Shown one piece after another: positions 8,078-54,638 of a stretch of 64,000 nt of DNA (position 1 is the first letter of the stretch; every line of letters begins with the position of its first letter). The position numbers and the translations under genes are program-made. The stretch covers positions 47,434-111,433 of the forward strand of contig CAVRAD010000001.1 of assembly GCA_963718845.1 (NCBI GenBank). Reading direction: 5' to 3'. Source of the DNA: an uncultured Acidobacteriota bacterium (GTDB taxonomy: Bacteria; Acidobacteriota; UBA6911). The notes beneath the pieces are model-generated. The model was not told the DNA's origin. It worked only from the letters and a program-made list of their open reading frames with translations, and did not search any database.

Positions 8078-8085
8078 TTAAGTTC

Positions 8086-8277
8086 AGATTCCAGATTCCG
8101 ATTCCGGTTTCCGCGAGTCCGATTCCTGATTCCTGATTCCTGATTCCTGAATCAGGAATCAGCTATCAGATGTCATTAGTCGGGAATCTAAATCCGGAAT
8201 CTCGGAATCAGGAATCAAGAAAAAGCCTATTAAACTGACTCCACGGCCATATCGAATCGGAATCAGGAATCAGGAAT
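8086..8277. repeat. Tandem-heptamer hairpin: GATTCCT-type units followed by inverted AGGAATC units
   Basis: gattcctgattcctgattcctgattcctga|atcaggaatcag at 8121-8162, degenerate units on both sides, and an extra ggaatcaggaatcaggaat block at 8253-8277. Lies between the stop at 8077 and the start at 8295. Confidence 0.8.
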
Positions 8278-8294
8278 TATTTATCGGAGACTTC

Positions 8295-9428: not shown

Positions 9429-9455
9429 GCCTGAACTATTTATTTCATAGGATAC

Positions 9456-35161: not shown

Positions 35162-35163
35162 TT

Positions 35164-35292
35164 AGGTTCCAGGTTCCAGGTTGCAGGTTCCAGGTTGCAG
35201 GTTGCATGTTCCATGTTTCATGTTAAAAACCGCACTCTGTAACCTGTAACCTGCAACCTGTAACTTGTAACCTGTAACTTGTAACCTGGAAC
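35164..35292. repeat. Tandem-heptamer hairpin: AGGTTSC units followed by inverted GTAACCT units
   Basis: aggttcc aggttcc aggttgc aggttcc aggttgc aggttgc atgttcc atgtttc ... gtaacct gtaacct gcaacct gtaactt gtaacct gtaactt gtaacct. Lies between two co-directional minus-strand genes. Confidence 0.8.
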
Positions 35293-35332
35293 TAATTATT
35301 AGTACGAAATCCCGCTAGAAATGCGGATTAGT

Positions 35333-36850
35333 CTATGCCGGCGAAACTGTTACCCTGTGCGTGGTCTCGTTCAGTTTCACATCATACGTGATTGTTTTGC
35401 GCACCGGACCTTTGCCGCTGTCCTCTGACGAGCCCGGCGCGCCTTGTGATGGAGACGCGGCCTGCTGCGCGTTCGGGTCCTTGCCCAGGTTTTTCGGGCC
35501 TGCGTCGCGCGTGGAAAAAAACTTAGGAGCCACCTGAGGAAACATGGCAAAAGTGAGCACGTCTTCATCCGAGCCATTGCAGCCGGGCAATTCCAGCGCC
35601 GCTTCGCGCAGATCCTGCCACTCCGGCTTCAGGAGATCCGCGGGACGGCACGTGATCGGAGGCTTGCCAGTCTGTTTGGCTGCCAGATCGATGACCTCTG
35701 GATTGCGCGGCCCTATGGTTTCACCGTAGTAACCCAGCATCAGGTCGGCAAACTCCCCGGTCATGACTTTGTATTTTCCCATCAGCACATTGAAGACCGC
35801 CTGCGATCCCACAATCTGGCTCGATGGCGTAACCAGCGGCGGGAAGCCGGCGTCCTTGCGCACTTTCGGAACCTCGGCCAGCACTTCATCCGTTCGGTCG
35901 TCCGCCTTCTGCTGTTTTAGCTGGCTTTCCATGTTGGAGAGCATGCCGCCGGGAATCTGGCTTTCGAAGATCTCAGTTTCCACGCCGGTGATGTTCGAGA
36001 TGAATTCCTTATAGCGAGGGGCTATTTTCAGGAAGTGCTTCTTGATTTTCAGTAGCCGTGCTTTGTCGATCTTTGTATCGAAACCCGTGCCTTCGAGCAT
36101 TTCCACCAGGCTCTCCGTGGGATTGTGGCCGGGCCCGAGGCTGAGGGCGCTGATCGCCGTATCGACTCCATCCGCGCCGGCTTCGATGGCTTTCATCAGG
36201 CTGACCATGGTGACGCCGGTGGTGGCGTGCACGTGGACCTGAACGCGCACATTCTGTCCGCAGGCGTCCTTGATTCCACGGACAAGATCATAGGCCGGTT
36301 GCGGTTTGAGAAGCGCCGCCATGTCCTTGATGCAGATGGAATCGCAGCCCAGCGCGACGAGTTTCTCTGCATGCTCCACGAACTGTTTGATGGTATGCAG
36401 CGGGCTGGTGGTATAGGAGATGGCGCCCTGGGCATGTTTGCCTGTCTTCTTCACGGCGGCAATGGCGCGCTGCAAGTTGCGAATGTCGTTGAGCGCGTCG
36501 AAAATCCGGAACACATCGATGCCGTTGTTGGCCGCTTTTTCGACAAAGCGATCGACGACCGTGTCTTCGTAATGGCGGTAGCCGAGCAGGTTCTGGCCGC
36601 GCAGCAACATCTGGAGCCGCGTGTTCGGCATGAGCTTGCGGAAGGTGCGCAGGCGTTCCCATGGGTCCTCATTGAGAAACCGGATGCAGGAGTCGAAAGT
36701 CGCGCCTCCCCAGCACTCAACGGACCAGAAACCCGCCTTGTCTATATCCTCACACGCAGGGGCCATATCCTCGGTCGCCATACGCGTCGCCATCACACTC
36801 TGATGCGCATCGCGGAGAATGAGTTCGGTAATGTCAATTATCTTGGGCAT
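35333..36850 (-). CDS. Pyruvate/oxaloacetate carboxyltransferase (transcarboxylase 5S / OadA-type) without C-terminal biotinyl domain
   Basis: MPKIIDITELILRDAHQS..., HVHATTG, and no AMKM motif at the C-terminus. ATG at 36850 follows AAGGAAGA. Confidence 0.85.
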   Translation of the reverse strand: MPKIIDITELILRDAHQSVMATRMATEDMAPACEDIDKAGFWSVECWGGATFDSCIRFLNEDPWERLRTFRKLMPNTRLQMLLRGQNLLGYRHYEDTVVDRFVEKAANNGIDVFRIFDALNDIRNLQRAIAAVKKTGKHAQGAISYTTSPLHTIKQFVEHAEKLVALGCDSICIKDMAALLKPQPAYDLVRGIKDACGQNVRVQVHVHATTGVTMVSLMKAIEAGADGVDTAISALSLGPGHNPTESLVEMLEGTGFDTKIDKARLLKIKKHFLKIAPRYKEFISNITGVETEIFESQIPGGMLSNMESQLKQQKADDRTDEVLAEVPKVRKDAGFPPLVTPSSQIVGSQAVFNVLMGKYKVMTGEFADLMLGYYGETIGPRNPEVIDLAAKQTGKPPITCRPADLLKPEWQDLREAALELPGCNGSDEDVLTFAMFPQVAPKFFSTRDAGPKNLGKDPNAQQAASPSQGAPGSSEDSGKGPVRKTITYDVKLNETTHRVTVSPA

Positions 36851-37876: not shown

Positions 37877-39030
37877 CTATGCCAGGAGTTGCTGGGCTCG
37901 AATCAAACGATCCTGGACCCGCACTCCATTCGGACACTGAATGGCGCAGGTTTCACAGTCGATGCAACGCATATCACGAACTTCTCTTGCAAGATCTCTG
38001 AAGCTTACGACCGCATGATGGTAGTCGCCGTAGAAATCATGATACGAGAGAAAACGCAGCACGTCCGACACGGGCATGCCCTTCGGACACGTCCCTTTGC
38101 ACTGGTAACACATGCGGCAGTAATCCGGCCGGATCTGCTCGTTTATTAAGCCCAGTAATTTCTCATCCGCTGGAGTATAGGATTCCGACATCGCCCGGAA
38201 ATTCATTTCGAGCTGTGGAATGGTCCGCATATTGGGGACGGTTGTGCCGATTGCCGGATTCTGTAAAACCCATTTAATGCCTGCGACCGGGCCGTCACCG
38301 TTTGGCCTGGCGGGCGGGTTTTCGACGCTTTTTAAATTAAAGCCCGACAGCGCGACCACGACTTTCATGGCAATGACGCCGATGCCGGCTTCATGGAGCT
38401 TGGCAATTGCCGGTTCTCGGTAGCGTCCGCCGATCGGGAAAACTGTAGGTAGTCTGAATGACATCGAATTTCCCGGTTTTCAGAATGAAGGGAACCATGT
38501 TGTTGATATCGTGGCAGCTGAAGCCGATGAAGCGGGCTTTCCCCGATTTCTTGCATTGTCTCCAAAGCCTCGATCGCCTCATCCGGGATTTGGGCCGGGT
38601 TATCCCTTCCATGCAGATGCCAGATGTCGACGTGATCCGTGCCAAGTACTTGAAGACTCGTGTCCAAGTCCTCCAATATGTGCGCTTTCTTCGTCCTGCC
38701 GGACTTGCTGGCGATTATTATCTTGTCTCTTTTGCCTTTGATCACACCGGAAAAGATTTTTTCGCTGTCGCCGTAATCGCGGGAGGTGTCGAAGTAATTA
38801 ATGCCCATGTCAATGGCGCGCGCGACAACATCCGGAACCGGCACGAATCCTATGCCGTAACCGACCCCGGTAACCTTTAATCCTGTTTTTCCCAAAGTCC
38901 GATATACGACCTGGGGAGCGCTCGAACTCCCCTGAAATGCCGAGTGCAAGCCGCCCGATGAGACAAGCCCTACAGCAGGCAGAGCCAAGCCCGCCTGCAG
39001 AAACTTCCTTCGTGATTGATGGGAATCCAT
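37877..39030 (-). pseudogene. Decayed paralog of the Tat aldo/keto reductase-FeS protein (two frame breaks ~38550 and ~38440)
   Basis: ORFs 38365, 38391 and 37877 read consecutively and are colinear with 8295-9428 (SRRKFLQAGLALPA; KARFIGFSCHDINN; FPIGGRYREPAIAKLHEAGIGVIAMK; CRMCYQCKGTCP...CIDCETCAIQCP). Confidence 0.7.
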
Positions 39031-39260: not shown

Positions 39261-42215
39261 TTGCAGGAGCCGGGCTTGAGGGATCGCTGCACAACCAGTT
39301 CTTCAGGATCACTCCTGGCTGCGGCATTGTGTGTCCTCGCGCTTTTAAGTGCAGCTTCATTCGACCATCTCCTTGCGCAAGACAGGGGGCAGAAAAACGA
39401 ACAGAAGCCACGGAATGGCAAGGAGCCGCCACGAGATCTGAGGCTTCCCGCAGTGGGGAGTGAAAGGGTCTGTCTGGGCTGCCACGGACCCGAGAAGGAT
39501 CCGGCAATGGTGCGTGAGGGACGAACGAGTTCCATCGAAATCAATGGCAAGCGCTTTGCCAAGTCAGCCCACGGTTCTCACGATGTTGGCTGCGTAAAGT
39601 GTCATTCAGAATTGCCCCACAAGTTCGGCCTGCCGCTGGTGAAGTGCGGTTCCTGCCACGAGAAGGAGGCGAACGTCTATAGCCGGAGCATCCACGGCAA
39701 ACAGCTTGCGGCCGGGGATAAGCTGGCGCCAACCTGTCAGGAATGCCATGGGGAGCATTACATCGTTCCGCTGCGTGATCCCGAATCGCCCGCTGCCCCT
39801 CTCAATATTTCACAGATGTGCACCAAGTGCCACGCGGAGGGACAGCCCGTGCAACGGGCTGCGAACATCCCCAAAGAACAGCTCCAGAAGCGCTACACCC
39901 AGAATATTCACAAAGACGGATTGTTCAAGCAGGGATTGGTCGTAACGGCGGTCTGCACTAGTTGCCATACGAGCCACAGCGTTCTACCCCATACGGATCC
40001 GGCCTCGAGTATTTCCAGACAAAACGTCGTTCGGACCTGCATGAAGTGCCACGGAATGATTGAGGTGGTTCATCGCAAAATCGTCCGAGGCACGCTATGG
40101 GAAAAGGAACCTCACAAAGTACCTGTCTGCGTGGAGTGCCACTCTCCACACGAAGCACGCAAGGTCCTTTATGACACCCAGATGGCCAACTCGGATTGTC
40201 TTGCCTGTCATGGCAAAAAGGATCTTCGAGCCGCCAAGGGCGGGCCGTCTCTTTTTGTGCGTGCAGAGGAATACGCGGCATCGATTCACGGGCGGAAAGT
40301 AGTCGCCTGCACGCAGTGTCATACTGGTGTAACTGTCACGGCGGAACGTCCCTGCTCGACTATCGAAAAGAAGGTGGATTGCTCCATCTGCCATGAGGCT
40401 GAGGTATCCAATTATTCTGCGGGAATCCACGGCCGATTGCACGCCAAGGGTGATACGAAAGCCCCGTACTGCACCGACTGTCACGGCACGCATGAAACCC
40501 TGGAGCACTCGACCAGCGCGGATTCGCCGGATTCTGTGAAGCAAATGGTTTACGAGTCTCCGACCTTTGCACTCAAAGTGCCCCTACTTTGCGCCCGGTG
40601 CCACCAGCGGGGCGGCCAGGCCGCAGTGCGCTATCAGGGCGCAGTGAAAAACATGGTCGAGAACTATGCCGAGAGTATCCATGGAAAAGGGCTTCGGGAG
40701 AGCGGCCTGACCGTGACGGCTACCTGCGCCGACTGCCACACCCCGCACAAAGAGCTCCCACGGAGTGATCCCCAGTCCACTGTTCATCCGGACAACATCG
40801 CCAAGGTCTGCGGCAAGTGTCATCAGGGAATCGAGGAGCAATACGCCGGGAGCGTCCACTCGCGCGCCAATAACACCGAATACAAGCGCCTACCGGGCAA
40901 GCCGGACCTGCCTGGATGCAGCGACTGCCACTCATCCCATGAAATTACCCGCGCCGACGCCACAGGCTTCAATCTCGCCGTTATGGACCAATGCGGCAAC
41001 TGCCACAAAGATGTGGTCGAGACTTACCTGGACACCTATCACGGAAAGGCGTCCAGGTTGGGAAAGGCCAACGCAGCGAAGTGTTATGACTGTCATGGCG
41101 CGCACGATATTCTGGCGCTAAACAATTCCCGGTCACGACTCAGCCAGGGAAATATTGTAGAGACCTGTGCAAAATGCCACCCGCGGGCCCATCCCGGTTT
41201 TAAAGGCTACTTGACCCACGCGACCCACTACGATTCCAAAAAGTATCCGGCGCTTTTCTTCGCGTTTTGGGGCATGACGGGCCTGTTGGTGGCAACCTTT
41301 GCATTCTTTGGCTGCCATACCCTGTTGTGGCTGCCCACGTCGTTGAGAATGCGCAAACATGCAAAAGAGATTTTGGCTGGCAGCGATCCAAATGCGAAGC
41401 ATGTCCTGCGGTTTACAATCCGCCAGCGAGCCATGCACCTGATCATGATTATAAGTTTCTTCGGGTTGGCCCTTACGGGGATGACGCTGAAGTTCAGTTA
41501 CATGGCCTGGGCGAGATTTATCGCCTGGAGCATCGGGGGCGCCGCATTTGCGGGTTACATCCATCGGGTGTGCGCTGTAGCGATGTTTAGTCTGTTCGCT
41601 TATCACCTCTGGGAATCATTCCAGCTGTATAAAAAAAGTGGCAAGAAACCCATAGATTTTCTGCTGGGTCCCGACACCATTGTGCCGACTCTGGCAGACG
41701 CCAAGGAGTTCATGGCGACGTTCAAGTGGTTTCTGGGCCGGGGGCCGCGGCCCCAATACGGGCGTTGGACCTATTGGGAGAAGTTCGACTACTTCGCGGT
41801 CTTTTGGGGTATAGGAATCATTGGCTCTACCGGCTTGATGTTGTGGTTTCCAGAACTGACCACCTGGATTCTGCCGGGATGGGTCCTTAATGTGGCGACC
41901 ATCATTCACAGCGACGAAGCGCTGCTGGCAACGGGATTTATCTTCACGATTCATTTTTTCAACACTCACTTCCGCCCCGAGAAGTTTCCCATGGACTTCG
42001 TTATGTTGACCGGCAGGGTGCCGCTGGAGGAATGGAAGCACGAAAGACCTCGCGAGTATGAGGATAGGGTTGCTACGGGAAAGATGGAGGAAATCCTCGC
42101 CGATCCAATGCCGACAGTCGTAACGCATGTGGGAAGGTTTTTCGGTATCCTGGCATTAGCGATCGGTTTGAGTCTCGTTGCCCTAATTCTTTACGCCATG
42201 CTGTTTGGTGGCTGA
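39261..42215 (+). CDS. Fusion of a 19-haem c-type cytochrome with a C-terminal FdnI/HydC-like cytochrome b membrane domain (CbcL-like architecture)
   Basis: 984-aa ORF. Signal-like SLLAAALCVLALLSAAS. 19 CXXCH counted. Last ~340 aa hold 5-6 hydrophobic helices with conserved His (AMHLIMIISFFGLALTG, YIHRVCAVAM, IIHSDEALLATGFIFTIHFFNTHF). No ATG at the 5' end; start is TTG at 39261 or 39276. Confidence 0.85.
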   Translation: MQEPGLRDRCTTSSSGSLLAAALCVLALLSAASFDHLLAQDRGQKNEQKPRNGKEPPRDLRLPAVGSERVCLGCHGPEKDPAMVREGRTSSIEINGKRFAKSAHGSHDVGCVKCHSELPHKFGLPLVKCGSCHEKEANVYSRSIHGKQLAAGDKLAPTCQECHGEHYIVPLRDPESPAAPLNISQMCTKCHAEGQPVQRAANIPKEQLQKRYTQNIHKDGLFKQGLVVTAVCTSCHTSHSVLPHTDPASSISRQNVVRTCMKCHGMIEVVHRKIVRGTLWEKEPHKVPVCVECHSPHEARKVLYDTQMANSDCLACHGKKDLRAAKGGPSLFVRAEEYAASIHGRKVVACTQCHTGVTVTAERPCSTIEKKVDCSICHEAEVSNYSAGIHGRLHAKGDTKAPYCTDCHGTHETLEHSTSADSPDSVKQMVYESPTFALKVPLLCARCHQRGGQAAVRYQGAVKNMVENYAESIHGKGLRESGLTVTATCADCHTPHKELPRSDPQSTVHPDNIAKVCGKCHQGIEEQYAGSVHSRANNTEYKRLPGKPDLPGCSDCHSSHEITRADATGFNLAVMDQCGNCHKDVVETYLDTYHGKASRLGKANAAKCYDCHGAHDILALNNSRSRLSQGNIVETCAKCHPRAHPGFKGYLTHATHYDSKKYPALFFAFWGMTGLLVATFAFFGCHTLLWLPTSLRMRKHAKEILAGSDPNAKHVLRFTIRQRAMHLIMIISFFGLALTGMTLKFSYMAWARFIAWSIGGAAFAGYIHRVCAVAMFSLFAYHLWESFQLYKKSGKKPIDFLLGPDTIVPTLADAKEFMATFKWFLGRGPRPQYGRWTYWEKFDYFAVFWGIGIIGSTGLMLWFPELTTWILPGWVLNVATIIHSDEALLATGFIFTIHFFNTHFRPEKFPMDFVMLTGRVPLEEWKHERPREYEDRVATGKMEEILADPMPTVVTHVGRFFGILALAIGLSLVALILYAMLFGG

Positions 42216-42231
42216 CACCAGAGGCGACACA

Positions 42232-44350
42232 ATGATAATGCCACGGCGACGAAGGAGATGGATTTTACGGGCTGGAATTTTTGTCTTCTTCTCCCTGCTA
42301 CCTTTATCAGAACCGAGTTCAGGCCAGACACAGGAAAGAGGAGCTGACCAGCGTTGCCTGAACTGCCATGAACAAAAGCATATTACCGCGCTCTCCCGCG
42401 AGGAGCGGGAGATGATGGTCGTTGTGCCTGAGCCCGGTCTCCCGGAGCGGAAAAATCCTGCGAGCCTGCTATGTCGAACAAAGTATTCTTGCGCAAGGAT
42501 TCCACAGCAATGTGACCTGCGAGCAGTGCCACACGGGGGTGGAATCGCTTCCTCATGCCGCCCGTTTGTCCGAGCCCCAGTGCGAAACCTGCCACCAGGA
42601 GCAAGTCGCGGAGGTTTCGCGAAGCATGCACGCAAAGGTGATTCGGACCTCGGAACCGATGCCCCCTCGATGCTGGGATTGCCACGGTGCTCACGAGATT
42701 CGTCTTCAAAGCAAGGTGAATCCACTAGAAAAGATCAGGGTCTGTGCTTCCTGCCACCAGACGTATTCGGGCCAGATGGCGGGCCTGAAGAATGGAGGCG
42801 TGCTGGTGCGATCCTACCTGGACAGTGTTCATGGCCGGAGAAAGCCCGGCACTGCGGAGGTAGGAGCCACCTGCGAGGATTGTCATGGTCACCATGAGAT
42901 CCTGCCTGTTCAAGACCCTCGCTCCAGGGTTCATCGTTTAAACATCCCGGAAACTTGCGGGCGCTGCCACGCTGATATTTTGAAAGAGTTCGAGTCGACG
43001 GTTCACGCGGAGGTGGCGCGCCGGAATGATCCGTCGGTCCGGGCCGCCCTTTGCAACGATTGCCACACGGCGCATGCCATTACGCATACCAATACACCCG
43101 AATTTATGCTGGATATCGTCAGCGAGTGTGGGGTTTGTCACAAGGAGCTCTATCGGACCTATCGGGAGACGTATCATGGCCAAGTACAGCAGCTCGGCAG
43201 CGTGCGTGCTGCACGGTGCAGTGACTGCCACGGGACCCACAACATACGGCGCCCGTCAGATCCTAAATCATTATTGTCGGCCGCCAACCGTCCCGAGACC
43301 TGTTCGCGCTGCCATCAGGAGATCAAAACAATGGCGGCATCGGGCCGCGAAAATTTCGTCGCCTACCACCCGCATGCAGACTTTCGCGATGGGCAAAAAC
43401 ATCCCGCGCTGCTTTTAATCTGGCGTTTTACTCTTATTGTCGGTGCTATCCTGCTGGCGATCTGGGGCTTGCACTGGATGGGGTGGCTCAATCGGGATTT
43501 GCGGAAGAGATCGGATCTGTCGGAGGATGGACCAGTGCATGCAATGCTCCGGTTCAAGGCGCTGCATCGCTGGACCCATCTTCTAGCGACCGCCTGTGTG
43601 CTGGGATTGGCTCTGACGGGCATGCCCCTGAAGTTCAGCCGTCAGCCCTGGGTTGTGGCCTCAATGGCGCTTTTCGGCGGGCCTGACGGAGCGGCTCTCC
43701 TTCATCGCCTGTTCGCAATTTTTTTGGTTGGCATCGGCCTGTTTTATGGATTCTATGCCTTGATTCTGCGGGGAGATCGAAAACAGCCGCTCCGGAAGCG
43801 GATCGTGGGGCCCGATAGCCTGGTGCCGAGCATCAGGGACATTCGACAATTTATAGGAATGTTTCGGTGGTTCACCGACCGGGGAGGCCGTCCGGAACTG
43901 GACCGCTGGAGCTACAGGGAAAAGTTCGACTACTGGGCCCTAGTGATCTCGGTGAACGCCCTTGCCTTTTCCGGTGCGTTTCTCTGGTTCCCCACTTTTT
44001 TCGCCAGATTCCTCTCCGGTTACTGGTTTAACGTGGCCATGGTTGTCCACAGCTATGCCGGACTGATGGCCATAGGCTGCGCCATCATGATCCATCTTTT
44101 CAATACCAGCCTTCGTAGGGAAGGATTCCCTGTGAACGATGTGATGCTCACAGGACAGCTTTCCGAGAAAGAGCTCCAAGAGGGGCGATCCGCACAGTAC
44201 GCGCGTCTGGCCAAAGAGGATACGCTGAGCCAATTGAGAGTGCAGCCAGCGTCAGACCGAAAGCGAAAGATTGCATTTTATGGTACGGTCGCATTACAGA
44301 TTCTGGGATTAGGAACTTTTATATTAATCGTTATTGCAGCGTTGATATAG
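42232..44350 (+). CDS. Fusion of an 11-haem c-type cytochrome with a cytochrome b-like membrane domain (paralog of the C-terminal half of 39261); apparent frameshift ~42468
   Basis: ATG at 42232 gives MIMPRRRRRWILRAGIFVFFSLL...CLNCH in the frame of ORF 42205, then continues in ORF 42422. 11 CXXCH in total. Membrane domain is colinear with the preceding gene (ALHRWTHLLATACVLGLALTG, REKFDYWALV, VVHSYAGLMAIGCAIMIHLFNTS). Confidence 0.8.
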
Positions 44351-44368
44351 TTATCGATAGGAAACACA

Positions 44369-45787
44369 TTGAGACCTGGCTGCTACAAATTGGAGATTGG
44401 ATCTTTGATTCCTTGGGTAGTTGTTCTTCTTGTCACGTTCTTCAGGCTTCCCCTTGCAGCTGCCCAGACAGGGCCCCAGGAGCGTCCAACCGCGCCAACG
44501 AAGAATTGCACGGCCGGTGGTTGCCATTCGAACGTGACTGCTTATCCGGTTCTGCATGGGCCTATGAGGGCGGGTGCCTGCTCCGGATGCCATAGGCAAA
44601 GTGACGCAGTAAAGCACACATTCCAACTGACCCGTGAAGGAGGCAGTCTCTGCCTTTTTTGTCACAAGCTCGAAACCGGCAAGTATTCCCATAAGCCAAT
44701 GACGGAAAAGACCTGTCTCGAATGTCACAATCCCCACGGCGGGGAGACGCGCCCGCATCTGCGTGCGAAGACTACGCGGGCATTGTGCGAGAAGTGTCAT
44801 GCAAAGACGATCAAGGGAAAGATGGTGCACAAACCGGTTGCCGATGGGGGGTGCCTGGGGTGTCACACTGCGCACGTTTCGAATTATCCGAAATTGCTTC
44901 GTCAGGAACCGAACACAGTGTGTCTGGACTGCCATGTAGTCTTCGCCAACCGGATAAAGCAGGCGCGATCCATTCACAAGCCCATGGGGGAAGGTTGCCT
45001 GAAATGTCATAACGCACATGCTTCGGATAGGCCGAAATTGCTGGGAAAACCGATGCGAGAGCTTTGTTATTCCTGCCACGAGAACATTCGATTGACTGTG
45101 GAGCATGCTAAAGTCCGCCACGGGGCACTTGAGGAAATTCGGGAGTGCATGAACTGTCACGACGCCCACGCGACCCGTTATTCGAAGCTTCTCCGGAACA
45201 ATGCGAGAGCCCTATGTCTGAAATGCCACGACAAGGAGATCACGACCTCTAAAGGGAAGATCCGGGACATGAGCAAGATACTTGCGTCCGGCAAAAGCCT
45301 TCACGTGCCGAATACAGCAAACGAGTGCAGTGCATGTCACCAGATTCACGGAGGAGACCTGTTCGATCTGCTGAACAAGGAGTATCCTTCCGAGTTTTAT
45401 TCGTCGTTCCGGGAAGAGAACTACGCGCTTTGTTTTTCCTGCCACGATCCCAGGCTAGCCGTAGTCTCGAAGACAACGAATCTGACTGGATTTCGGAATG
45501 GCGATATGAATTTGCACTCCGTGCATGTCAACCAGAAAACCAAAGGCCGAACCTGCCGCGCTTGTCACGAAATACACGCGATGGATCGGGAACAGTACAT
45601 CCGGGATTCCGTGCCCTTCGGCGACTGGATATTCCAAACTGGATATGCGAAAACGGCCGCGGGCGGATCCTGTGCCCCGGGCTGCCACCAGCATTTCTCC
45701 TATGATCGACAGAATCCCGTGAAGTACGAGCAGGATTCGGGGAAATCAGGAGAGGGTGGCAAAGAGGGAATCCAAGGTGAAAAATAA
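44369..45787 (+). CDS. Periplasmic multihaem cytochrome c (13 CXXCH + CX4CH + CX3CH), c7/c3-type repeats
   Basis: 472 aa. N-terminal hydrophobic segment. Repeating H.P.....C..CH..H motif. TTG start at 44369. Confidence 0.85.
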   Translation: MRPGCYKLEIGSLIPWVVVLLVTFFRLPLAAAQTGPQERPTAPTKNCTAGGCHSNVTAYPVLHGPMRAGACSGCHRQSDAVKHTFQLTREGGSLCLFCHKLETGKYSHKPMTEKTCLECHNPHGGETRPHLRAKTTRALCEKCHAKTIKGKMVHKPVADGGCLGCHTAHVSNYPKLLRQEPNTVCLDCHVVFANRIKQARSIHKPMGEGCLKCHNAHASDRPKLLGKPMRELCYSCHENIRLTVEHAKVRHGALEEIRECMNCHDAHATRYSKLLRNNARALCLKCHDKEITTSKGKIRDMSKILASGKSLHVPNTANECSACHQIHGGDLFDLLNKEYPSEFYSSFREENYALCFSCHDPRLAVVSKTTNLTGFRNGDMNLHSVHVNQKTKGRTCRACHEIHAMDREQYIRDSVPFGDWIFQTGYAKTAAGGSCAPGCHQHFSYDRQNPVKYEQDSGKSGEGGKEGIQGEK

Positions 45788-45834
45788 AAAGTGACTGTCA
45801 CTGGAGCGTCTTATCGCGTTTGGAAAAGAGCGAG

Positions 45835-47481
45835 ATGAATCGAATGCGCTGGAAATCTATCCGATCATTCGGAATTAATCGTTGGCTAGTGGGCATGTTG
45901 CTTGTGTGCGCCTGTGGACAAGAATTTGCGCGCGTTGCGTATAGCCAGGACAATTCAATGATCAAGCTGATTGAGACCCTGAGCGATACCAATCGCGATC
46001 TTCGTGATGAAGCCGTTAATGCTCTGGTAAAGCTGGGCCCGGCCGCCATTGAATCTCTCGTTGCCGCGCTGAAAAGCAAGAATGATGTTGTTCGACAGGA
46101 GGCTACCGGCGCATTGGGGCGTATACGGGATCCACGAGCGGTGGAGCCCCTCATCGGCGCTTTGAAGGATGCGGATTCTATTGTCAGCTATAGAGCAGCC
46201 GACGCGTTGGGGGACATCAAAGATCCGCGATCAGTGGAACCCCTCATCGCCGCCCTGAAGGATAAAAAACTGCTGTTGAGAACTCAGGCTGTCGCCGCCT
46301 TAGGGCGTATCCACGATCCCCGTGCGGTGGATGCCCTCATTGCTGCTCTGAAGGATGAGGATCCCCTCGTGAGCTATAGGGCGGCCGATGCATTGGGGGA
46401 ATTCAAAGATCCACGTGCGATAGAACCGCTTATTGTCGCGCTGAAGGATAAAAATCTCCTACTGAGAACTCAGGCTGCCGGCGCGCTTGCAAAGCTGGGT
46501 TCGGCAGTCGTTAATCCTCTCGTCGTTGCGCTGAAAAGCCATGCGGATGATGTTGCTCGCAGGGAAGCCGTCGGCATTTTGGGGCGCATCCACACTCCTG
46601 ATGCGATTGATGCCCTCATCGCTGCTCTGAAGGATTCAGATTCCATCGTGAGCTCGAGAGCAGCCGATGCATTGGGGGAAATCAAAGATTTGCGCGCTAT
46701 AGAACCCCTTATTTCCGCCATGAGGGATAAAAATCTCCTGCTGAGAACGCACTCTGCCGCCGCACTGATAAACTTGGGCCCGGCAGCCCTTGATCCTGTC
46801 GTTGCTGCGGTAAGAAAACAGGATGATGATGCTCTCCGGGAGGTTGCCACCGCCTTAATACACATCAAAGATCCGGATGCGGTTCAATCCCCGACGGCAA
46901 GCATGACGGCTCAAGATAAGGATGTTCGCTCCGCAGCCTCCAAGAAATCGGATAGCGTCAAAGATTCCCTTGGGGACCAACCCCCCGTGGACAGGCTTCT
47001 GGTTCTTAAAAAGAATCCGCTACTGAAACAGAGGCTGTTGGAATCGGAGCAGGCGGTATCGGAACCAGTGTCCATGCAGATCAAGATCCTAAGGAGCGGA
47101 GATATACGCGCCAGGGCCGACGCTGCATTTCAGTTGAGGAAAATGGGGCCGTCGGCCCAGGGGGCGATCTTGGTGCTGATCGAGACGCTGTATGATCCGA
47201 AAATTGAAGAACAGAATACCCATTGGGGAGAGGGAGTTCAGAACATAACCACGATTTCCCCGGCCATGGAAGCTGCCGAGACGCTTGTGATGTTTGGAAA
47301 TCCGGCGGTAGAGCCGCTGGTAGCGGTTCTAGAGGATTCCAATCCGAGTGTCCGGAAATCAGCCGCTCGGATACTAAGACAAATCAAAGATCCGCAGACC
47401 GTGGAACCCCTTATCGCCGTTTTGAAAGATGCGGATCCGGATACCCGGCAGATGGCAATCCAGGCGTTAGGTCGAGATTAA
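45835..47481 (+). CDS. Secreted HEAT-repeat (PBS-lyase-type) protein
   Basis: Signal-like MNRMRWKSIRSFGINRWLVGMLLVCACG. More than 10 repeats of A..ALG.I.DPRAVEPLIAALKD.D..VR. Confidence 0.8.
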   Translation: MNRMRWKSIRSFGINRWLVGMLLVCACGQEFARVAYSQDNSMIKLIETLSDTNRDLRDEAVNALVKLGPAAIESLVAALKSKNDVVRQEATGALGRIRDPRAVEPLIGALKDADSIVSYRAADALGDIKDPRSVEPLIAALKDKKLLLRTQAVAALGRIHDPRAVDALIAALKDEDPLVSYRAADALGEFKDPRAIEPLIVALKDKNLLLRTQAAGALAKLGSAVVNPLVVALKSHADDVARREAVGILGRIHTPDAIDALIAALKDSDSIVSSRAADALGEIKDLRAIEPLISAMRDKNLLLRTHSAAALINLGPAALDPVVAAVRKQDDDALREVATALIHIKDPDAVQSPTASMTAQDKDVRSAASKKSDSVKDSLGDQPPVDRLLVLKKNPLLKQRLLESEQAVSEPVSMQIKILRSGDIRARADAAFQLRKMGPSAQGAILVLIETLYDPKIEEQNTHWGEGVQNITTISPAMEAAETLVMFGNPAVEPLVAVLEDSNPSVRKSAARILRQIKDPQTVEPLIAVLKDADPDTRQMAIQALGRD

Positions 47482-48500
47482 TGACCCTCGGGTTGTTGAC
47501 GCCCCTCATCGCGGTGCTTGCGGATAGTGATGCCCAGACTCGAAATATCGCGATTCAAACATTAGGCATAATCCGGGAGTTCAAGACTGTGGATCTCATA
47601 ATATCCGCTCTCAAGGATGAAAATCCCATGATACGGAGCGGCATCGCTCAGGCATTAGGGCAGATCAGAGTTCCACGCGCGGTGGACCCTCTCGTTGCCG
47701 CTTTGAAGGATAGCGATCGCAATACGAGGCTAATGGCAATCCAAGCATTAGGGCGGGCAAAAGATCCGCGCGCGGTGGAACCCCTCCTTGCTACTTTGAG
47801 GGATAACGATCTTGACATCAGGCTTACGGCGATGCAATCCCTGGGACAGATCCAAGACCCGCGTGCCGTGGAATTCATCATCGCGTTTCTAAGAGACAGC
47901 AATCCCATTGTCCGGCGCATGGCGGTTCAGGCATTACGGCAAATCAAAGACCCGCGCGTTTCGAAGTCCCTTATCCCGGTCCTTGCGGATGAGGATGCCC
48001 AGACTCGTGCCCTGGTCATTCAAGCATTAGGGAACATCAAGGGTTCCCAGGCTTTGGATCTCCTCCTGGCCGCTCTAAAGGATGCGCAACCCTTGATTCG
48101 GATTGGCGCATTCCAGGTTCTAGGGCAGATCAGGGATTCCTATGTTGTAGAACCTCTCATGGTTATTTTGAAAGATTTAAATCCCGAAACCCGGAATATG
48201 GCAGCCCTTGCATTAGGGCGGATCCGTGATCCGCGCGCCGTGGAATCCCTCATCGCGGCTTTGAATGATAAAGATCAGAACGTACAGATATCAGCCGTGA
48301 GAGCATTGGGGGAGATCAATGATCCGCGTGCTGTGGAGCCCCTCATCGCTGCCTTGCAGGGTAAGCCAGAGGTTGTTCGTACTGAGGTGGCGTGGGTTCT
48401 AACAAAACTCACCGATAAGGATTTCGGCATTAATTATAATCTCTGGAAACAGTGGTGGAGTTCCCAAGCGCCGGTCGGGCTTAATACCTCAAAACCATAA
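47481..48500 (+). CDS. HEAT-repeat protein: either a separate gene (TAATG stop/start overlap) or the C-terminal half of 45835 if the junction is a frameshift
   Basis: About 10 further repeats of the same consensus. The third frame across the junction reads NDPRVVD, which fits the repeat consensus, so the boundary is ambiguous. Confidence 0.65.
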   Translation: MTLGLLTPLIAVLADSDAQTRNIAIQTLGIIREFKTVDLIISALKDENPMIRSGIAQALGQIRVPRAVDPLVAALKDSDRNTRLMAIQALGRAKDPRAVEPLLATLRDNDLDIRLTAMQSLGQIQDPRAVEFIIAFLRDSNPIVRRMAVQALRQIKDPRVSKSLIPVLADEDAQTRALVIQALGNIKGSQALDLLLAALKDAQPLIRIGAFQVLGQIRDSYVVEPLMVILKDLNPETRNMAALALGRIRDPRAVESLIAALNDKDQNVQISAVRALGEINDPRAVEPLIAALQGKPEVVRTEVAWVLTKLTDKDFGINYNLWKQWWSSQAPVGLNTSKP

Positions 48501-48516: not shown

Positions 48517-49797
48517 ATGCATATGGAAGGATCGGACGCGAAATATCATCGGCAAAAGGATAGCAAACGCTTCCAGCCTCGACTTGCGTACGTGCTTATC
48601 GGCCTGCTGGCATGCGTTGCGCTTTGTGGAGTGTGCGCGGCCATTTCTGCGCCCCAAAAGAATCCCCAGGCTTCCGCCGCGCGACAGGACAAGAAGCCAC
48701 ACCCCCCCCTGGCGGGCAAAGCGTGCGTCGATTGCCACGAACAGAATGTGTCGTCAACGGTGCGCTGCCTGGTGGCTAAAGAACCGTTGTGCGTACTCTG
48801 TCACGATATCCCGGATGTCGGAGGCACTTCGCGCCTGGTGAACTCAGACAATCCGCTCTGCTTCAAGTGCCATGCGAAAGAAAAATTCAAAAGCAGCTTT
48901 AGTCACGGGCCATTTGTTTTCGGGGCATGTGTTGCCTGTCACGATCCGCACGGAGGTAATGAACCACGCATGTTGCGGATTTCCGGCCGGCAACTGTGCT
49001 TGACCTGCCATAGGGACATGGATACCAGGTTCACGAATGCAAGATTTCGGCACCAGGCCTTAGCGACCGGATGCACCGAATGCCATTCCCCGCATTCATC
49101 GGAGCAGCGCTACGAGTTGAAGGCGGCCGTTCCCGTACTTTGCGCCAAATGTCACGAAAAAACTCTCCACGAACAGGAAGCGGTAAAAGTAAAACATTCT
49201 CCGGTCACAGAGGCGCCCGCTTGTATGAATTGTCATAATCCGCATCTGTCCGAGAACGATCATTTACTCCTTTCCGAGGAGCCGGATACTTGTCTGAGAT
49301 GCCACGATGAGCCCATCAAGATCGGCAAAAATGAATTGGAGCCAATGGGACAATTCCTGGCGGCGAATCCAAGGCAGCACGGGCCCATGCAAAGCAAGGA
49401 ATGCTCAGGATGCCACAAACCGCACGGGTCCTCCCATTTCCGACTCTTGACCGATGCATATCCGAAAGAGTTTTATGCTCCCTTCCAGGTATCGAAATAC
49501 GATCTCTGCTTTCGTTGCCATGAGTCCACCCTGGTGAAAGAAGAGCGCACGGCAACGTTGACTGGATTTCGAGATGGCGACCGCAATCTTCATTTTGTTC
49601 ATGTCAGCAAGGTCCCGGCAGGACGAACTTGCCGGTTTTGTCACGAGACTCACGCGAGCACTTTGCCCAAACACATCCGGGTGTTCGTGCCCTTCGGGAC
49701 ATGGAAGCTGCCGGTAGGATTTAGTCAGACCGAAAATGGCGGAAGCTGTGCGCCCGGCTGTCATGAATTAAAGAAATACGAACGGAAGGCCGGGTAA
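48517..49797 (+). CDS. Periplasmic multihaem cytochrome c (12 CXXCH + CX3CH), paralog of 44369-45787
   Basis: 426 aa. TM/signal segment LAYVLIGLLACVALCGVCAAISA. C-terminal module LCFRCH..LTGFRDGDRNLHFVHV...GRTCRFCHE.H...GGSCAPGCH is shared with 44369. Confidence 0.85.
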   Translation: MHMEGSDAKYHRQKDSKRFQPRLAYVLIGLLACVALCGVCAAISAPQKNPQASAARQDKKPHPPLAGKACVDCHEQNVSSTVRCLVAKEPLCVLCHDIPDVGGTSRLVNSDNPLCFKCHAKEKFKSSFSHGPFVFGACVACHDPHGGNEPRMLRISGRQLCLTCHRDMDTRFTNARFRHQALATGCTECHSPHSSEQRYELKAAVPVLCAKCHEKTLHEQEAVKVKHSPVTEAPACMNCHNPHLSENDHLLLSEEPDTCLRCHDEPIKIGKNELEPMGQFLAANPRQHGPMQSKECSGCHKPHGSSHFRLLTDAYPKEFYAPFQVSKYDLCFRCHESTLVKEERTATLTGFRDGDRNLHFVHVSKVPAGRTCRFCHETHASTLPKHIRVFVPFGTWKLPVGFSQTENGGSCAPGCHELKKYERKAG

Positions 49798-49877: not shown

Positions 49878-50834
49878 TTAATGCACCGTTACCGGTAGGC
49901 CAAGGGCTTCCAGTGCTTCTTTCAAGGACTGGATCTTTTCATCCGAAGGAGGTTCGGCTTCCAGAACGAGTTTGCTGTCATCGATCCGCGGGTATTTCAT
50001 AACTCCCAGGTTGTGATAGGGCAGCAGCTGAATCATGGCGACCGCCTCCCCGAGAGATTTGCAAAACAAACCGGTTGCGCGGATGCTTTCTTCCGAGTCG
50101 CTGAAATCCGGGATTACAGGAAGGCGGATCTGCATTTTTCCGCCCGCCCGCGCGATTTTGGCGGCATTCTCCAGGATCAGCCCATTCGGCACGCCGGTCA
50201 CCCGGCGGTGCTGCTCGCTGTCCATATGCTTCAGGTCGTATAAGAACAAATCCGTATAAGGCAAAATCTGTTCTACTATTTCGTATCGTGCATAGCCGGT
50301 GGTGTCCACTGCGGTGTGGATGCCGGACTTCTTCAGGCTTTTCAGTACCTGCAGAACGAACTCCGGCTGGCATAGCGGTTCTCCGCCGGAGATGGTGACG
50401 CCGCCGCCGGAGTGTTCATAAAAAGGCATATCCTTGCGCAGTCGCCGTACCAGTTCATCCACGGTATATTCGGTGCCGCAGATCACCAGCGCTTTCGCGT
50501 AGCATACGCCTGCGCAATCCCCGCAATTATTACATTGGGAGCGGTCGATATGAATGTGCTGAATGTTTTCCTGAGTGGCTGCATGCCGGACCCATGTGCC
50601 GGGAGCGATCGCTCCTTTGGGGCAGGCGCTCAGGCACTTTCCGCATTTTTCGATGCCCACGCAGCGGAGGGACATCCAGCTCAGTTGCTTATAGAACTGC
50701 TGGGATTCAGGGCTGTGGCACCAGGGACAACGCAGGGGGCACCCCTTTAAAAAGACCGTCGTGCGGATGCCGGGGCCATCCTGCACAGAAAATCCCTGTA
50801 TGTCGTAGACAATTCCCGTTAACGGCTTTTCCAT
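49878..50834 (-). CDS. Glycyl-radical enzyme activating protein (radical SAM with two extra 4Fe-4S motifs)
   Basis: 318 aa. DGPGIRTTVFLKGCPLRCPWCHSPES (CX3CX2C), then CGKCLSACP and CNNCGDCAGVC clusters. Confidence 0.9.
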   Translation of the reverse strand: MEKPLTGIVYDIQGFSVQDGPGIRTTVFLKGCPLRCPWCHSPESQQFYKQLSWMSLRCVGIEKCGKCLSACPKGAIAPGTWVRHAATQENIQHIHIDRSQCNNCGDCAGVCYAKALVICGTEYTVDELVRRLRKDMPFYEHSGGGVTISGGEPLCQPEFVLQVLKSLKKSGIHTAVDTTGYARYEIVEQILPYTDLFLYDLKHMDSEQHRRVTGVPNGLILENAAKIARAGGKMQIRLPVIPDFSDSEESIRATGLFCKSLGEAVAMIQLLPYHNLGVMKYPRIDDSKLVLEAEPPSDEKIQSLKEALEALGLPVTVH

Positions 50835-50857
50835 GATTTTCGAGTCCGCCTGGATGG

Positions 50858-53275
50858 TTACAGACTCAGCTCCGTGCGCCGGATGATATCGTCCTGGCTG
50901 GCCTTGTAGAGTTCTACGAAGTACGCGCTGAAGCCGGCGATCCGCACTACCAGATCCCTGTATTCTTCCGGATGCTCCTGCGCCCTGCGCAAAACTTTTC
51001 CGCTGACGATGTTGAACTGCATCTCCATGCCGCCCAGAGCGAAGTAGGTTCGGATCAGAGCGATCAGTTTTCCTTTGCCCGTTTCGTTGCTCAGCGCTGT
51101 CGGATGAAAACGCATGTTCAGCAAGGTGCCGTTTGAAAACTTCTTCTGGTCAATGGCCGACACGGACTTGAGCGTGGCGGTGGGGCCGCTCTTGTCGAGT
51201 TGCTGAACAGGGGAGATCCCGTCTGCGAGAGGTTCGCCGGCTTTCCTGCCGTCAGGCGACGCTGCAGTCGACATGCCGAACAGAACATGGGTCGTGACAG
51301 GATACAAACCGGCGGCATATCTGCCGCGAGGCCCTGTCGCGGAGTTCACGGCATCGCCATAAACATCGGACGCCCATTTTGCGAACTGGTCTGTGTACTC
51401 ATTGTCGTTTCCATAATGGGGCGCTTCGTTCAGGATAGTCTGTCTCAGTTCCTCTTTGCCTTCCCAGTTTGTCATGAGCGCGTCATAGAGTTCTCGCGCG
51501 GAAATGAGCTTTTTATCGTAGACCATGTACTTTACTACCGCCAGGCTGTCTGCGATGTTCCCGACGGCTATGCCGGCGTTGCCGGTCGAGTTATATTTTG
51601 CGCCGCCCTTCATAACGTCCTTGCCCGACTCCATGCAGCCGTCAATCGTTGCCGAAAGCAGCGGCAGCTGCATGTGTTCTGAGGCAACATATTCCCACAT
51701 GTTCACCAGGCTGATGTGCCAGCGGACGAAGTATTCCAGCTGCTTTCTGACGGCGCAGAGGACATCGTCGAAAGTTGCCATCTCATAGAGATACCCTGTC
51801 GGCAGGCCGACCTGCCCGCCAAGCTTTCCGTCGCGGCCGGGCATCGGGTTGTAGCCGTTGTTGATGGCCAGCAGGAAGGCGTTGAGCATATTGAAAAAAG
51901 ATTCCGTGCCGGTGCCGCCCGGGCACGCCCATTCGTCGCCGCAGCCTTGCGGCTCCACGCAGCCGATGAGACAGTAGTTACTCGCGCTCTCCATCGGCAG
52001 GCCTCTGGCCATGAGCGCCGGAATGATGACATCGTCATTTTCGAAGGTGGGCACGCCACCGGCGATTTGCGTCGTTTCGATTGCCGCTTCCCACAATTTC
52101 TGCGGAGTGCCTTTGTGGATGCGCAGGGACTGGGGTGGGTCATGCAGCACGAGGCGCCCGGCGGACTGAAGCATCATGTAGGATACGGCGTTGGTTGCAT
52201 CCTTGCCTTCTTTGGTCACTCCGCCAATGGTCATCAATTGACCGCTCGTGTAGCCTGGCCCGGAGAGTGTGGCAAAGTAGGGCCATATTTTGTTCATTTC
52301 AGCTACTTTTAGATAAAACATATCAAGTAGTTCTTGAGCTTTTTCGTGCGTGATTCTGCCTGCGGCGATGTCTGCGTCATAGTAGCCGCCCAGGTACTGA
52401 TCGACGCGGCCGAAACTGATTCCATGTTGTTGTGCGTCCAGGCACAAGCCGATCTGGTAGAGGAACATGCACTGTATCGCCTCATGGAAGGTCCGGCAGG
52501 GATTTTCCATAATCCAGTTCAGCGAATCGGCCATTGCCTCAAGTTCTTTTCTTCTCTCTGAATCTGTTTCCAGGGAAGCCAGCCGTGCGCATTCCCGGGC
52601 ATATCTTTTGGAGAGAGTGATCATGCCGTCGCAGACAATGGTCACGGCGCGATAGAAGTTGTATTTGGCTGCGCCGTCGCCGAACAGGACGCCTTCCAGT
52701 GCGTCCATTTTCGCCTGTGCTTCCTCGCGGATGGAGCCAAAGCCCTGGTGCATCGCTTTTTCAAAGTTCGCGACAAAATGGCCGACAGGCGACGAGCAGG
52801 TGTCCTTCGTGCCGAAGTAGGTGACGCCACTACCCGCGACATTAAAGTATCCAAGCGGGATATGTTCGTCCACTTTCGCGCTCAGGCACTCTTTGCGCCA
52901 CAGGTCGCCGGTGCTCAGAACATATTCAGCGTCCTTCGCGTCTATATCATAGGGATCCGTTTCTCTGAGCGGGATAGTGCCTGCTCTGAGTTCGTCCAGA
53001 AACCATCCGAACGAAGTTTCGGGGTAGAGCGCGCAAGCGCGATATTTCGCGGCCTGCCAACCGACGATCACTTCGTCCTTGTTAACGAGGACGGGAAGTT
53101 TTTCGCAGATATTCCTGAAGTTTTTGGCTCTTTTCAAAATGCCCTGCAGCTGCGGATTTTCCTTATAAAACTCCGTCACAATTTTATAGCGCGCGATGCA
53201 GATACTGGGTCTCGTCGTGCGATATTTCTCGCGCATCTTTGCAACGCGGTCCGTAACAGGGCTCAGCACGTACAT
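50858..53275 (-). CDS. Glycyl radical enzyme, Cys-x-Glu (eliminase/dehydratase-type) branch, substrate unknown
   Basis: ATG at 53275 follows AAGGAGG (MYVLSPVTDRVAKMREKY). Cys loop LIGCVEPQG. Gly-radical motif VVRIAGFSAYFVEL. The ORF-track N-terminal extension runs through a repeat element and is discounted. Confidence 0.9.
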   Translation of the reverse strand: MYVLSPVTDRVAKMREKYRTTRPSICIARYKIVTEFYKENPQLQGILKRAKNFRNICEKLPVLVNKDEVIVGWQAAKYRACALYPETSFGWFLDELRAGTIPLRETDPYDIDAKDAEYVLSTGDLWRKECLSAKVDEHIPLGYFNVAGSGVTYFGTKDTCSSPVGHFVANFEKAMHQGFGSIREEAQAKMDALEGVLFGDGAAKYNFYRAVTIVCDGMITLSKRYARECARLASLETDSERRKELEAMADSLNWIMENPCRTFHEAIQCMFLYQIGLCLDAQQHGISFGRVDQYLGGYYDADIAAGRITHEKAQELLDMFYLKVAEMNKIWPYFATLSGPGYTSGQLMTIGGVTKEGKDATNAVSYMMLQSAGRLVLHDPPQSLRIHKGTPQKLWEAAIETTQIAGGVPTFENDDVIIPALMARGLPMESASNYCLIGCVEPQGCGDEWACPGGTGTESFFNMLNAFLLAINNGYNPMPGRDGKLGGQVGLPTGYLYEMATFDDVLCAVRKQLEYFVRWHISLVNMWEYVASEHMQLPLLSATIDGCMESGKDVMKGGAKYNSTGNAGIAVGNIADSLAVVKYMVYDKKLISARELYDALMTNWEGKEELRQTILNEAPHYGNDNEYTDQFAKWASDVYGDAVNSATGPRGRYAAGLYPVTTHVLFGMSTAASPDGRKAGEPLADGISPVQQLDKSGPTATLKSVSAIDQKKFSNGTLLNMRFHPTALSNETGKGKLIALIRTYFALGGMEMQFNIVSGKVLRRAQEHPEEYRDLVVRIAGFSAYFVELYKASQDDIIRRTELSL

Positions 53276-53317
53276 GGTCAATCCTCCTTGTGATATTCTA
53301 CAGTGAATTATTTGATG

Positions 53318-53480
53318 TCGAAGCAAAAAAAAGGCAGGACACGAATTATCACGAATTCCACAAATGAGCTTGAAGAAATTATGGACAGCGCGAAGCGCCG
53401 CCGCCCATATGTGGAATCCGTGTAATTCGTGGCAAGCTTTTGTCTTTGAAATACAAAGAACTGTTAGACGCACTACACTC
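53318..53480. repeat. About 165-bp intergenic repeat element, copy 2 (see 3811-3975)
   Basis: Colinear with 3811-3975 in the same orientation. Lies in the divergent promoter region between the GRE and the Mo-oxidoreductase gene. Confidence 0.75.
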
Positions 53481-54289: not shown

Positions 54290-54638
54290 GGAGTGCGGCA
54301 GCAAGCTCTGCTCCTTACCCGCATCTTTGAAAATGAATCGAGCGATCGAAGCGCTGAAAGCGCGGTGCAGCAAAGCCCAGGGCGCAAGCCCTGGGTTATG
54401 AGAAGCAAGAAAAGGAGTCCTGAAAGGACGAAGCAGCCTGCGCCGCCCTTTCAGGGCTTTATCTTCTCCGCCTCCGACCCAGGGTTACGGCCGCTGCGCG
54501 GCCTCCGCCCTGGGCTTTGCTGCACCGCGCTTTCAGCGCTGGAGTTCTCGTTAGCATGATGCCTGTGATGCAATACTCACACGCAAATGCTTACCGATAG
54601 GAAGATGCGTGCAAGGAGCAGAGCTTGCTGCCGCTTTT
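54290..54638. repeat. Nested palindrome (outer ggagtgcggcag family arms, inner gcgctgaaagcgcg...cccagggc family arms)
   Basis: Outer arms 54290-54328 / 54602-54638. Inner arms 54350-54383 / 54507-54540. Confidence 0.8.

Follow-up and report, generated by a model that had tools for sequence, protein, structure and literature searches.

Why does a block of HEAT repeats lie in a run of cytochrome genes, and does it encode one protein or two? We addressed these questions for positions 45835-48500 of a 64,000-nucleotide stretch of DNA (the window), where repeats of the HEAT_2/HEAT_PBS type sit between genes for multihaem cytochromes. An earlier reading made from the letters alone (the sequence-only reading) had proposed that the repeat proteins scaffold or chaperone the cytochromes, or assist haem attachment at their unusual CX3CH and CX4CH sites, and had left open whether a TAATG motif in the middle of the block is a coupled stop/start or the mark of a frameshift. 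Our analysis indicates that 45835-48500 is one gene, and not two, for an alpha-solenoid protein of about 887 residues with predicted export. We give even chances to the reading that this protein is a periplasmic cytochrome-binding scaffold and not an enzyme of haem attachment.

Reading frame across the junction

As listed, the HEAT gene appears on the plus strand as two open reading frames (ORFs). The 5' part (45835..47481) has 548 residues from its ATG to a TAA stop at 47479-47481, and the 3' part (47481..48500), which has no signal peptide of its own, has 339 residues if begun at the ATG that overlaps this stop. Both contain multiple units above the Pfam gathering thresholds (27.7 bits for HEAT_2 and 20.9 bits for HEAT_PBS): positions 45820-47481 score 232.8 bits for HEAT_2 (E=3e-70) and 173.5 bits for HEAT_PBS (E=1.5e-53), and positions 47481-48500 score 342.4 bits (E=2e-104) and 143.4 bits (E=8e-44), respectively. 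When read in a 31-residue register, the 3' ORF consists of 10 near-perfect units, and the 5' ORF of about 10 units, a linker and further units. A hidden Markov model made from the protein's own repeats finds 11 units in the 5' ORF and 10 in the 3' ORF, and Tandem Repeats Finder reports DNA periods of 93, 186 and 279 nucleotides. The block thus encodes 21-24 copies of a 31-residue HEAT_2/HEAT_PBS repeat, in line with the earlier count of about 20 copies in 2.6 kb.

Between 47470 and 47510 the three frames read ...AIQALGRD*, INDPRVVD and (M)TLGLLTPLIAVLADSD. One repeat unit, spelled ALGR / INDPRVV / PLIAVLADSD, is therefore spread across three frames, and two +1 shifts are required to read it. 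We located two frame-shifting bases that are missing from all relatives: an extra G at 47474 (47474..47474, plus strand), which faces a gap in the relative L001, and an extra A at 47499 (47499..47499, plus strand), 25 nucleotides downstream. Dropping the G restores ALGQINDPRVV. Without both bases the window reads ...AIQALGQINDPRVVAPLIAVLADSD..., where L001 has QIKDPRVVAPLITIL and L003 has QMKDLRIVEPLMARL, and the mended ORF of 887 residues contains ...ALGQINDPRVVAPLIAVLADSD....

The relatives read straight through this junction. L001, L002 and L003 are metagenome contigs that we reached through homologues of cytD, the cytochrome gene downstream of the HEAT gene (cytD identity 88% for L001 and L002, 69% for L003), and each carries a single HEAT ORF, of 886, 846 (with a shorter start call) and 890 residues, respectively. 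The mended window protein aligns with all three from end to end, including the junction, at 84%, 84% and 58% identity. The 5' part is collinear with residues 1-547 of the unbroken 886- and 890-residue orthologues, and the 3' part with the last 339 residues of the orthologues. Short-read contigs from runs X1, X3, X4 and X7, four independent metagenome samples, are about 95-99% alike to the window, and each is a single base short at both 47474 and 47499; in seven assembled loci the ORF is unbroken through the junction. Of the two alternatives raised earlier, it is thus the frameshift within a single protein of about 890 residues that is borne out, and the coupled stop/start is not. The TAATG overlap is, on this comparison of sequences, a derived or artefactual state and not a conserved design. 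Programmed frameshifting at the junction was also considered and rejected, as it needs two +1 events 25 nucleotides apart at sites missing in every relative.

Frame breaks are also present outside the HEAT gene. A blastn comparison of the cluster with L001 (87% identity over 10.6 kb) places a third frame-breaking extra base in the cytochrome gene cytB, at about 42468-42470. The signal peptide and first haem motif of cytB are in frame with ORF 42205-42897 and the remainder with ORF 42422-44350; at this site ERKNPxxLFVEQS is unbroken in L001, in L003 and in the X1 and X4 contigs, and the window switches frame. On the minus strand, an aldo/keto reductase gene at 37877-39030, with a signal like that of twin-arginine translocation and a C-terminal 4Fe-4S part, is spread over three frames and so contains two frameshifts; a base at 38559 is missing in a relative, and the gene also neighbours the cluster in L085 and L087. 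With two in the aldo/keto reductase gene, one in cytB and two in the HEAT gene, the frame breaks number at least five within some 10 kb. Further surplus single bases occur at 20315, 20331, 24857, 31017, 32704 and 37047, and at 27 other places, relative to contigs that are about 95% alike, which suggests that the window assembly has a general excess of single-base insertions. L084 and L085 (ENA), the assemblies nearest the window at the HEAT locus, are shattered by frameshifts throughout.

Because the window has frame breaks in cytB and the aldo/keto reductase gene as well, the split of the HEAT gene is probably artefactual. We hold, with reasonable confidence, that assembly or sequencing error is its likeliest cause, the alternative being real decay of this strain's operon. 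That the split is a working arrangement, in which TAATG coupling yields an exported 548-residue protein and a cytoplasmic 339-residue protein in this strain, we consider improbable. The two insertions do jointly set the TAA precisely over an in-frame ATG, and they are the only in-gene single-base differences from X1, X3 and X4 across 39-50 kb; yet the split form was seen in none of the data sets compared (four samples and seven assembled loci), its second product would have no signal peptide, and so many frame breaks (five or more) in a stretch of about 10 kb suit errors or decay, not design. The two-gene appearance and the TAATG "coupling" would then stem from frame-breaking single-base insertions, and genes in the window need to be checked for single-base breaks before they are annotated one by one.

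Architecture of the HEAT protein and its likeness to binders

The HEAT protein begins with a signal-peptide-like segment (45835..45915, plus strand; residues 1-27), recognized by hydropathy and pattern checks. Its N-terminus, MNRMRWKSIRSFGINRWLVGMLLVCA/CGQ, has five K/R residues and no D/E, followed by 10 residues whose hydropathy averages 2.8, and includes a possible lipobox, LLVCA/C, that fits the PS51257-type pattern (WLVGMLLVCAC). The basic-then-hydrophobic segment is kept in all five orthologues compared, confirming the export-like start that the sequence-only reading had noticed in the first protein. The lipobox Cys is not kept: L001, L003, L005 and L087 have VYA/QG-type signal peptidase I sites instead, and the L005 protein has no Cys at all. 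The HEAT protein probably carries a Sec-type signal peptide and is possibly lipid-anchored in this lineage.

Behind this segment lies an N-terminal alpha-solenoid block of about 10 repeats (45967..46869, plus strand), delimited by AlphaFold2, by the Tandem Repeats Finder period of 186 nucleotides and by a print of the repeat register. Its units alternate between ..SIVSYRAADALG.. and ..LLLRTQAVAALG.. in a 62-residue super-repeat, and at the DNA level super-repeat periods of 186 and 279 nucleotides cover 46100-46831 with 77% identity. The SIVSYRAADALG/LLLRTQAVAALG alternation is also found in L003 and is therefore old. When residues 1-548 were modelled with AlphaFold2, residues 45-345 formed a regular helix-pair solenoid, with a predicted local distance difference test score (pLDDT) of 80-95. 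A low-complexity linker follows (46882..46983, plus strand; residues 350-383), which is predicted to be disordered (pLDDT about 30, no secondary structure) and is gapped and little conserved among orthologues. The next segment is a helical middle module (46984..47310, plus strand; residues ~384-492) with the pattern LKQ.L.E.E ... AAFQLRK ... ETLYDP ... AVEAAETL, which is specific to the orthologues and has 44 invariant columns across four of them. The C-terminal alpha-solenoid block (47311..48410, plus strand) has about 12 repeats of 31 residues and is the part broken in the window by the two insertions. Orthologues range from 717 to 890 residues and differ by clean loss of whole 31-residue units (717-726 residues in L005 and L087 vs 887 in the window).

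The protein ends in a Trp-rich tail, TDKDFGINYNLWKQWW... (48411..48500, plus strand), that is kept in L001, L003 and L005. A DFG..Y..W..WW tail is also found in 15 of 120 long HEAT proteins with no other relation to it, including P0011 and P0012, and 12 of these 15 have a hydrophobic N-terminus. As judged from these sequences, the tail is a recurrent, uncharacterised module of putatively exported HEAT proteins. The mature HEAT protein has no Cys and few His, and carriage of a cofactor is therefore unlikely.

We then asked which known proteins the solenoid resembles. A sequence search of the PDB returned the artificial alphaRep binders as the best matches (E=5.6e-118), and Foldseek placed alphaRep first (TM-score up to 0.92, 48-50% identity), followed by the PP2A-A and karyopherin-beta scaffolds. 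In alphaRep, positions 18, 19, 22, 23, 26 and 30 are the second-helix library sites that form the concave binding face (PMC3754942). The window repeats have the same 31-residue unit with variability concentrated at the same sites: six of their eight most variable positions (12, 13, 16, 17, 20 and 24 in our own register) are these alphaRep positions. When the window and L003 are compared repeat for repeat, the eight variable positions are 51% identical, against 17% expected from column composition and 19% after a shift by one repeat. Since the variable positions are conserved between orthologues, each repeat keeps its own surface. Such repeat-specific surfaces would fit a specific, extended protein-binding surface.

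Linkage to multihaem cytochrome genes

The HEAT gene is the sole non-cytochrome member of a conserved five-gene operon, cytA-cytB-cytC-HEAT-cytD, with all genes on one strand. cytA (39261..42215, plus strand) encodes 19 CXXCH motifs joined to a cytochrome-b-type membrane domain in a CbcL-like architecture, and cytB (42232..44350, start approximate, plus strand) is a second fusion of multihaem c and cytochrome b parts, with 10 CXXCH motifs in the window and a length of 705 residues in L001. The Ni_hydr_CYTB model of Pfam scores 28.6 bits on cytA (cut-off 30.1) and 32.6 bits on cytB. cytC (44369..45787, plus strand) encodes an exported 13-haem Paired_CXXCH_1 cytochrome, whose 13 CXXCH motifs are accompanied by a CX4CH (residue 47) and a CX3CH (residue 435), and cytD (48517..49797, plus strand) encodes an exported 12-haem cytochrome of the same family, in which 12 CXXCH motifs are accompanied by a CX3CH (residue 411). 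Only 47 nucleotides separate the cytC stop from the HEAT ATG, and 16 the HEAT stop from the cytD ATG, in agreement with the tight packing between cytochrome genes noted earlier. Metatranscriptome contigs of relatives span cytA, cytB, cytC, the HEAT gene and cytD, which lends weak support to expression of the five genes, as the source run may contain DNA. Promoter and terminator scans gave sites no more numerous than in shuffled sequence. The gene lists of the window, L001 and L003 include no porin or other outer-membrane partner gene in the module, so that it differs from porin-cytochrome (Mtr/Pcc) systems in having no beta-barrel porin gene; DmsE-family models reach 113-123 bits, well short of their cut-off of 192. 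Genes flanking the five-gene module vary among the window, L001 and L003.

In order to find more orthologues, we searched with the middle module (residues ~384-492) as a specific probe, which recovered L084-L090, orthologues only. The mended full-length protein had been discarded as a query, since it returned only generic HEAT proteins of at most 44% identity, mostly longer, and no orthologues. In all 10 orthologue loci with enough flanking DNA, multihaem cytochrome genes adjoin the HEAT gene on the same strand, and at least three gene orders are represented. The order cytA-cytB-cytC-HEAT-cytD is that of the window, L001-L003, L084 and L085. In L005 and L087 the HEAT gene is followed by genes for a NapC/NirT-type 5-haem, a 10-11-haem (11 in L086 and L087), a 12-haem and a 13-haem cytochrome, an order shared by L086, whose contig ends inside the fourth gene. 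In L088 and L089 the HEAT gene precedes that of a 9-haem protein.

The view from the cytochromes is different. Among 80 genomic loci of the cytD/cytC family, 1.25 Mb from many phyla in which HEAT ORFs were scored even at permissive thresholds, a single one (L005) has a HEAT-type ORF within 10 kb, making such ORFs rare, with one in 1.25 Mb. The co-occurrence of HEAT and cytochrome genes that the sequence-only reading would require is therefore strict when viewed from the HEAT gene and not general when viewed from the cytochromes.

By cytD, the nearest species-representative genomes are metagenome-assembled genomes of Acidobacteriota (52-60% identity), among them L005 with its HEAT orthologue. 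The window is likely to stem from Acidobacteriota, and the multihaem operons in which the HEAT orthologues sit are probably those of Acidobacteriota. Exact matches to three proteins of the window were looked for in a sequence collection and none turned up, so that the source genome is absent from it. Reads of relatives were found in metagenomes of fresh water, wetland, soil and sediment. A further taxonomic hint to Acidobacteriota is an Rfam Acido-Lenti-1 RNA motif, which scores 47.7 bits (gathering score 37) at 54350-54395, minus strand.

Several other features surround the operon. The N-terminus of cytD (48517-48620) fits a lipobox pattern, LAYVLIGLLA/C, whose Cys is not kept in the family consensus. 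Just downstream and convergent with cytD, 49878-53473 on the minus strand encodes a glycyl-radical enzyme (PFL-like) and a radical-SAM activase, identified by the Pfam families of the syntenic L084 genes; the enzyme ORF as listed has 871 residues, including an N-terminal extension of about 65 residues ahead of a plausible Met. Synteny with L084 extends to a Mo-oxidoreductase gene and, in L084, a catalase gene. In L087, a DDE transposase gene separates the aldo/keto reductase gene from the HEAT gene. Upstream, between two minus-strand ORFs of about 525 residues, contig depth reaches 8,000-10,000 at 34973-35623 in X1 and X3, and this segment may be a highly conserved or multi-copy element common to abundant organisms.

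Proposed role and comparison with known systems

Because the linkage survives rearrangement (10 of 10 loci in at least three orders), we propose a functional tie between the HEAT protein and the cytochromes. In the periplasm, the repeat-specific concave surface of the solenoid would bind at least one of the co-encoded multihaem cytochromes. The solenoid would hold cytochromes as a scaffold or adaptor between quinol-linked membrane cytochromes, CbcL-like in the window arrangement and NapC/NirT-like in the second, and soluble or outer 12-13-haem cytochromes. A bolder version, which we regard as doubtful, makes the solenoid a structural component in a periplasmic electron conduit of a new kind. 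It would dock and order the 12-13-haem cytochromes as a fixed wire leading from quinol-oxidising bc-type membrane cytochromes to the cell envelope, an organising task that in Shewanella and Geobacter falls to porin sheaths or to small cytochromes that diffuse freely. Of the earlier proposal of a scaffold or chaperone, the functional tie is upheld by the conserved linkage and the binder architecture, and help in maturation is left without support.

Several points weigh against the proposal of an exported, cytochrome-binding scaffold. The signal peptide was judged by simple hydropathy and pattern rules, and cytochrome binding is read indirectly, from genomic context and a binder-type sequence. 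Shared ancestry could account for part of the conservation at the variable positions. The charges of the HEAT protein and the cytochromes show no consistent match, with HEAT isoelectric points of 5.5-8.8 across orthologues and mostly basic cytochromes. Since 79 of the 80 cytochrome-family loci have no such gene nearby, any role of the HEAT protein is lineage-specific or dispensable. Finally, the exact strain was found in no public run that we reached (best share of words 0.35), so that error at the junction is probable and not certain.

The name "PBS lyase HEAT-like repeat" invites the idea that the protein, as a CpcE/F-type HEAT protein, itself catalyses formation of the thioether between Cys and haem vinyl groups. 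The bilin lyases CpcE, CpcF and NblB are small cytoplasmic subunits of about 200-270 residues that act on phycobiliproteins, the CpcE/F-type lyases as heterodimers. The HEAT_PBS repeat type is common to both, and the PDB sequence search gave two weak matches, one with CpcE (5n3u, E=6e-8) and one with a bilin lyase-isomerase (7mc4, E=6e-7), but these are matches at the level of the repeat, and the alphaRep consensus binders match better by about 110 orders of magnitude. The NCBIfam models score far under their cut-offs on the 5' and 3' ORFs, at 121.2 and 103.8 bits for CpcE (cut-off 330), 101.4 and 85.8 bits for CpcF (cut-off 220) and 126.4 and 122.3 bits for NblB (cut-off 300), and no lyase is among the top 50 Foldseek matches. 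Size, compartment and neighbours are also unlike those of the lyases, as the window encodes a single 887-residue chain with a signal-peptide-like start beside cytochrome genes. Co-occurrence with unusual haem motifs failed as well, as set out below, so that lyase chemistry is not borne out and we find it scarcely credible here; the name reflects the repeat type, not the chemistry. The NCBIfam "DVU0298 family" model, at 70 bits against a cut-off of 75, is near its threshold and carries no functional information.

An exported solenoid might instead be a chaperone that holds unfolded multihaem apoproteins for haem attachment and might help at the unusual sites. Its signal peptide would put it in the compartment of cytochrome c maturation, its repeats have binder character, and it is strictly linked to operons encoding 40-60 haem sites. 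The unusual motifs, however, do not follow the HEAT gene. The C-terminal GGxCxxxCH (CX3CH) is invariant in the cytochrome family alignment and is present in 36 of 37 family members without a HEAT gene within 10 kb, 31 of 34 such 13-haem members have a CX4CH before their first CXXCH, and both motifs are missing from the 13-haem neighbours of the L005 and L087 HEAT orthologues; the suggestion of a maturation factor dedicated to these sites is accordingly not borne out. No ccm or nrf maturation families occur among the called genes of L001-L003, L084, L085 and L087, and conserved surfaces specific to each repeat, on a rigid solenoid of 24 repeats, suit a folded partner better than an unfolded one. 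We regard the chaperone as unlikely, and put it on a par with a role at the envelope, in which the protein would act on a mineral, a polymer, peptidoglycan or an outer-membrane component and merely be co-transcribed with respiratory genes. Such a role is favoured by the Trp-rich DFG..Y..W..WW tail in unrelated exported HEAT proteins (15/120) and by the lack of an encoded porin or outer-membrane partner in the module, but the linkage persists through three gene orders in which only the cytochromes are constant.

A full-text literature search turned up no work that connects HEAT or PBS-lyase repeats with cytochromes of the multihaem or c type, with extracellular electron transfer or with Acidobacteria. 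Neither the fold nor the cytochrome families are new in themselves; the novelty lies in their conserved, lineage-restricted pairing. In uncultured bacteria of sediments and wetlands, clusters of multihaem cytochrome genes are the main genomic marker of extracellular or long-range electron transfer, and non-cytochrome partners make a conduit work. If the scaffold reading is true, an exported binder-type HEAT protein would be an undescribed accessory component of cytochrome operons in probable Acidobacteriota, and its role would be among the few function assignments for the very abundant bacterial HEAT_PBS proteins.

The HEAT protein can be set beside four known systems. With CpcE/CpcF and NblB it has the HEAT_PBS repeat type in common, and it differs in its predicted export, its one 887-residue chain, the lack of a phycobiliprotein context and the lack of correlation with unusual haem motifs. 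The tetratricopeptide repeat proteins CcmI and NrfG are periplasmic apocytochrome chaperones of cytochrome c maturation. Like them, the HEAT protein would be a helical repeat protein acting on c-type cytochromes in the periplasm; unlike them, it belongs to another repeat class, has no ccm/nrf linkage and shows no dependence on unusual haem motifs. CbcL joins a multihaem c domain to a HydC/FdnI-like b-type membrane domain (PMC9129911). The module resembles the CbcL-type systems of Geobacter in the probable fusion of c and b domains in cytA and cytB and in the large periplasmic multihaem cytochromes next to them, and differs in its haem motifs (19 in cytA and about 11 in cytB vs 9 in CbcL), in having no porin gene and in the presence of a HEAT solenoid gene, for which the literature searched gave no counterpart in such clusters. 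The closest likeness is to alphaRep and its natural parent family of 31-residue thermostable HEAT-like proteins (e.g. Mth187), in both the 31-residue unit and the variable sites. Compared with alphaRep, the window protein is natural, predicted to be exported and about four times longer, and it combines two solenoid blocks, a middle module and a Trp-rich tail within a cytochrome operon.

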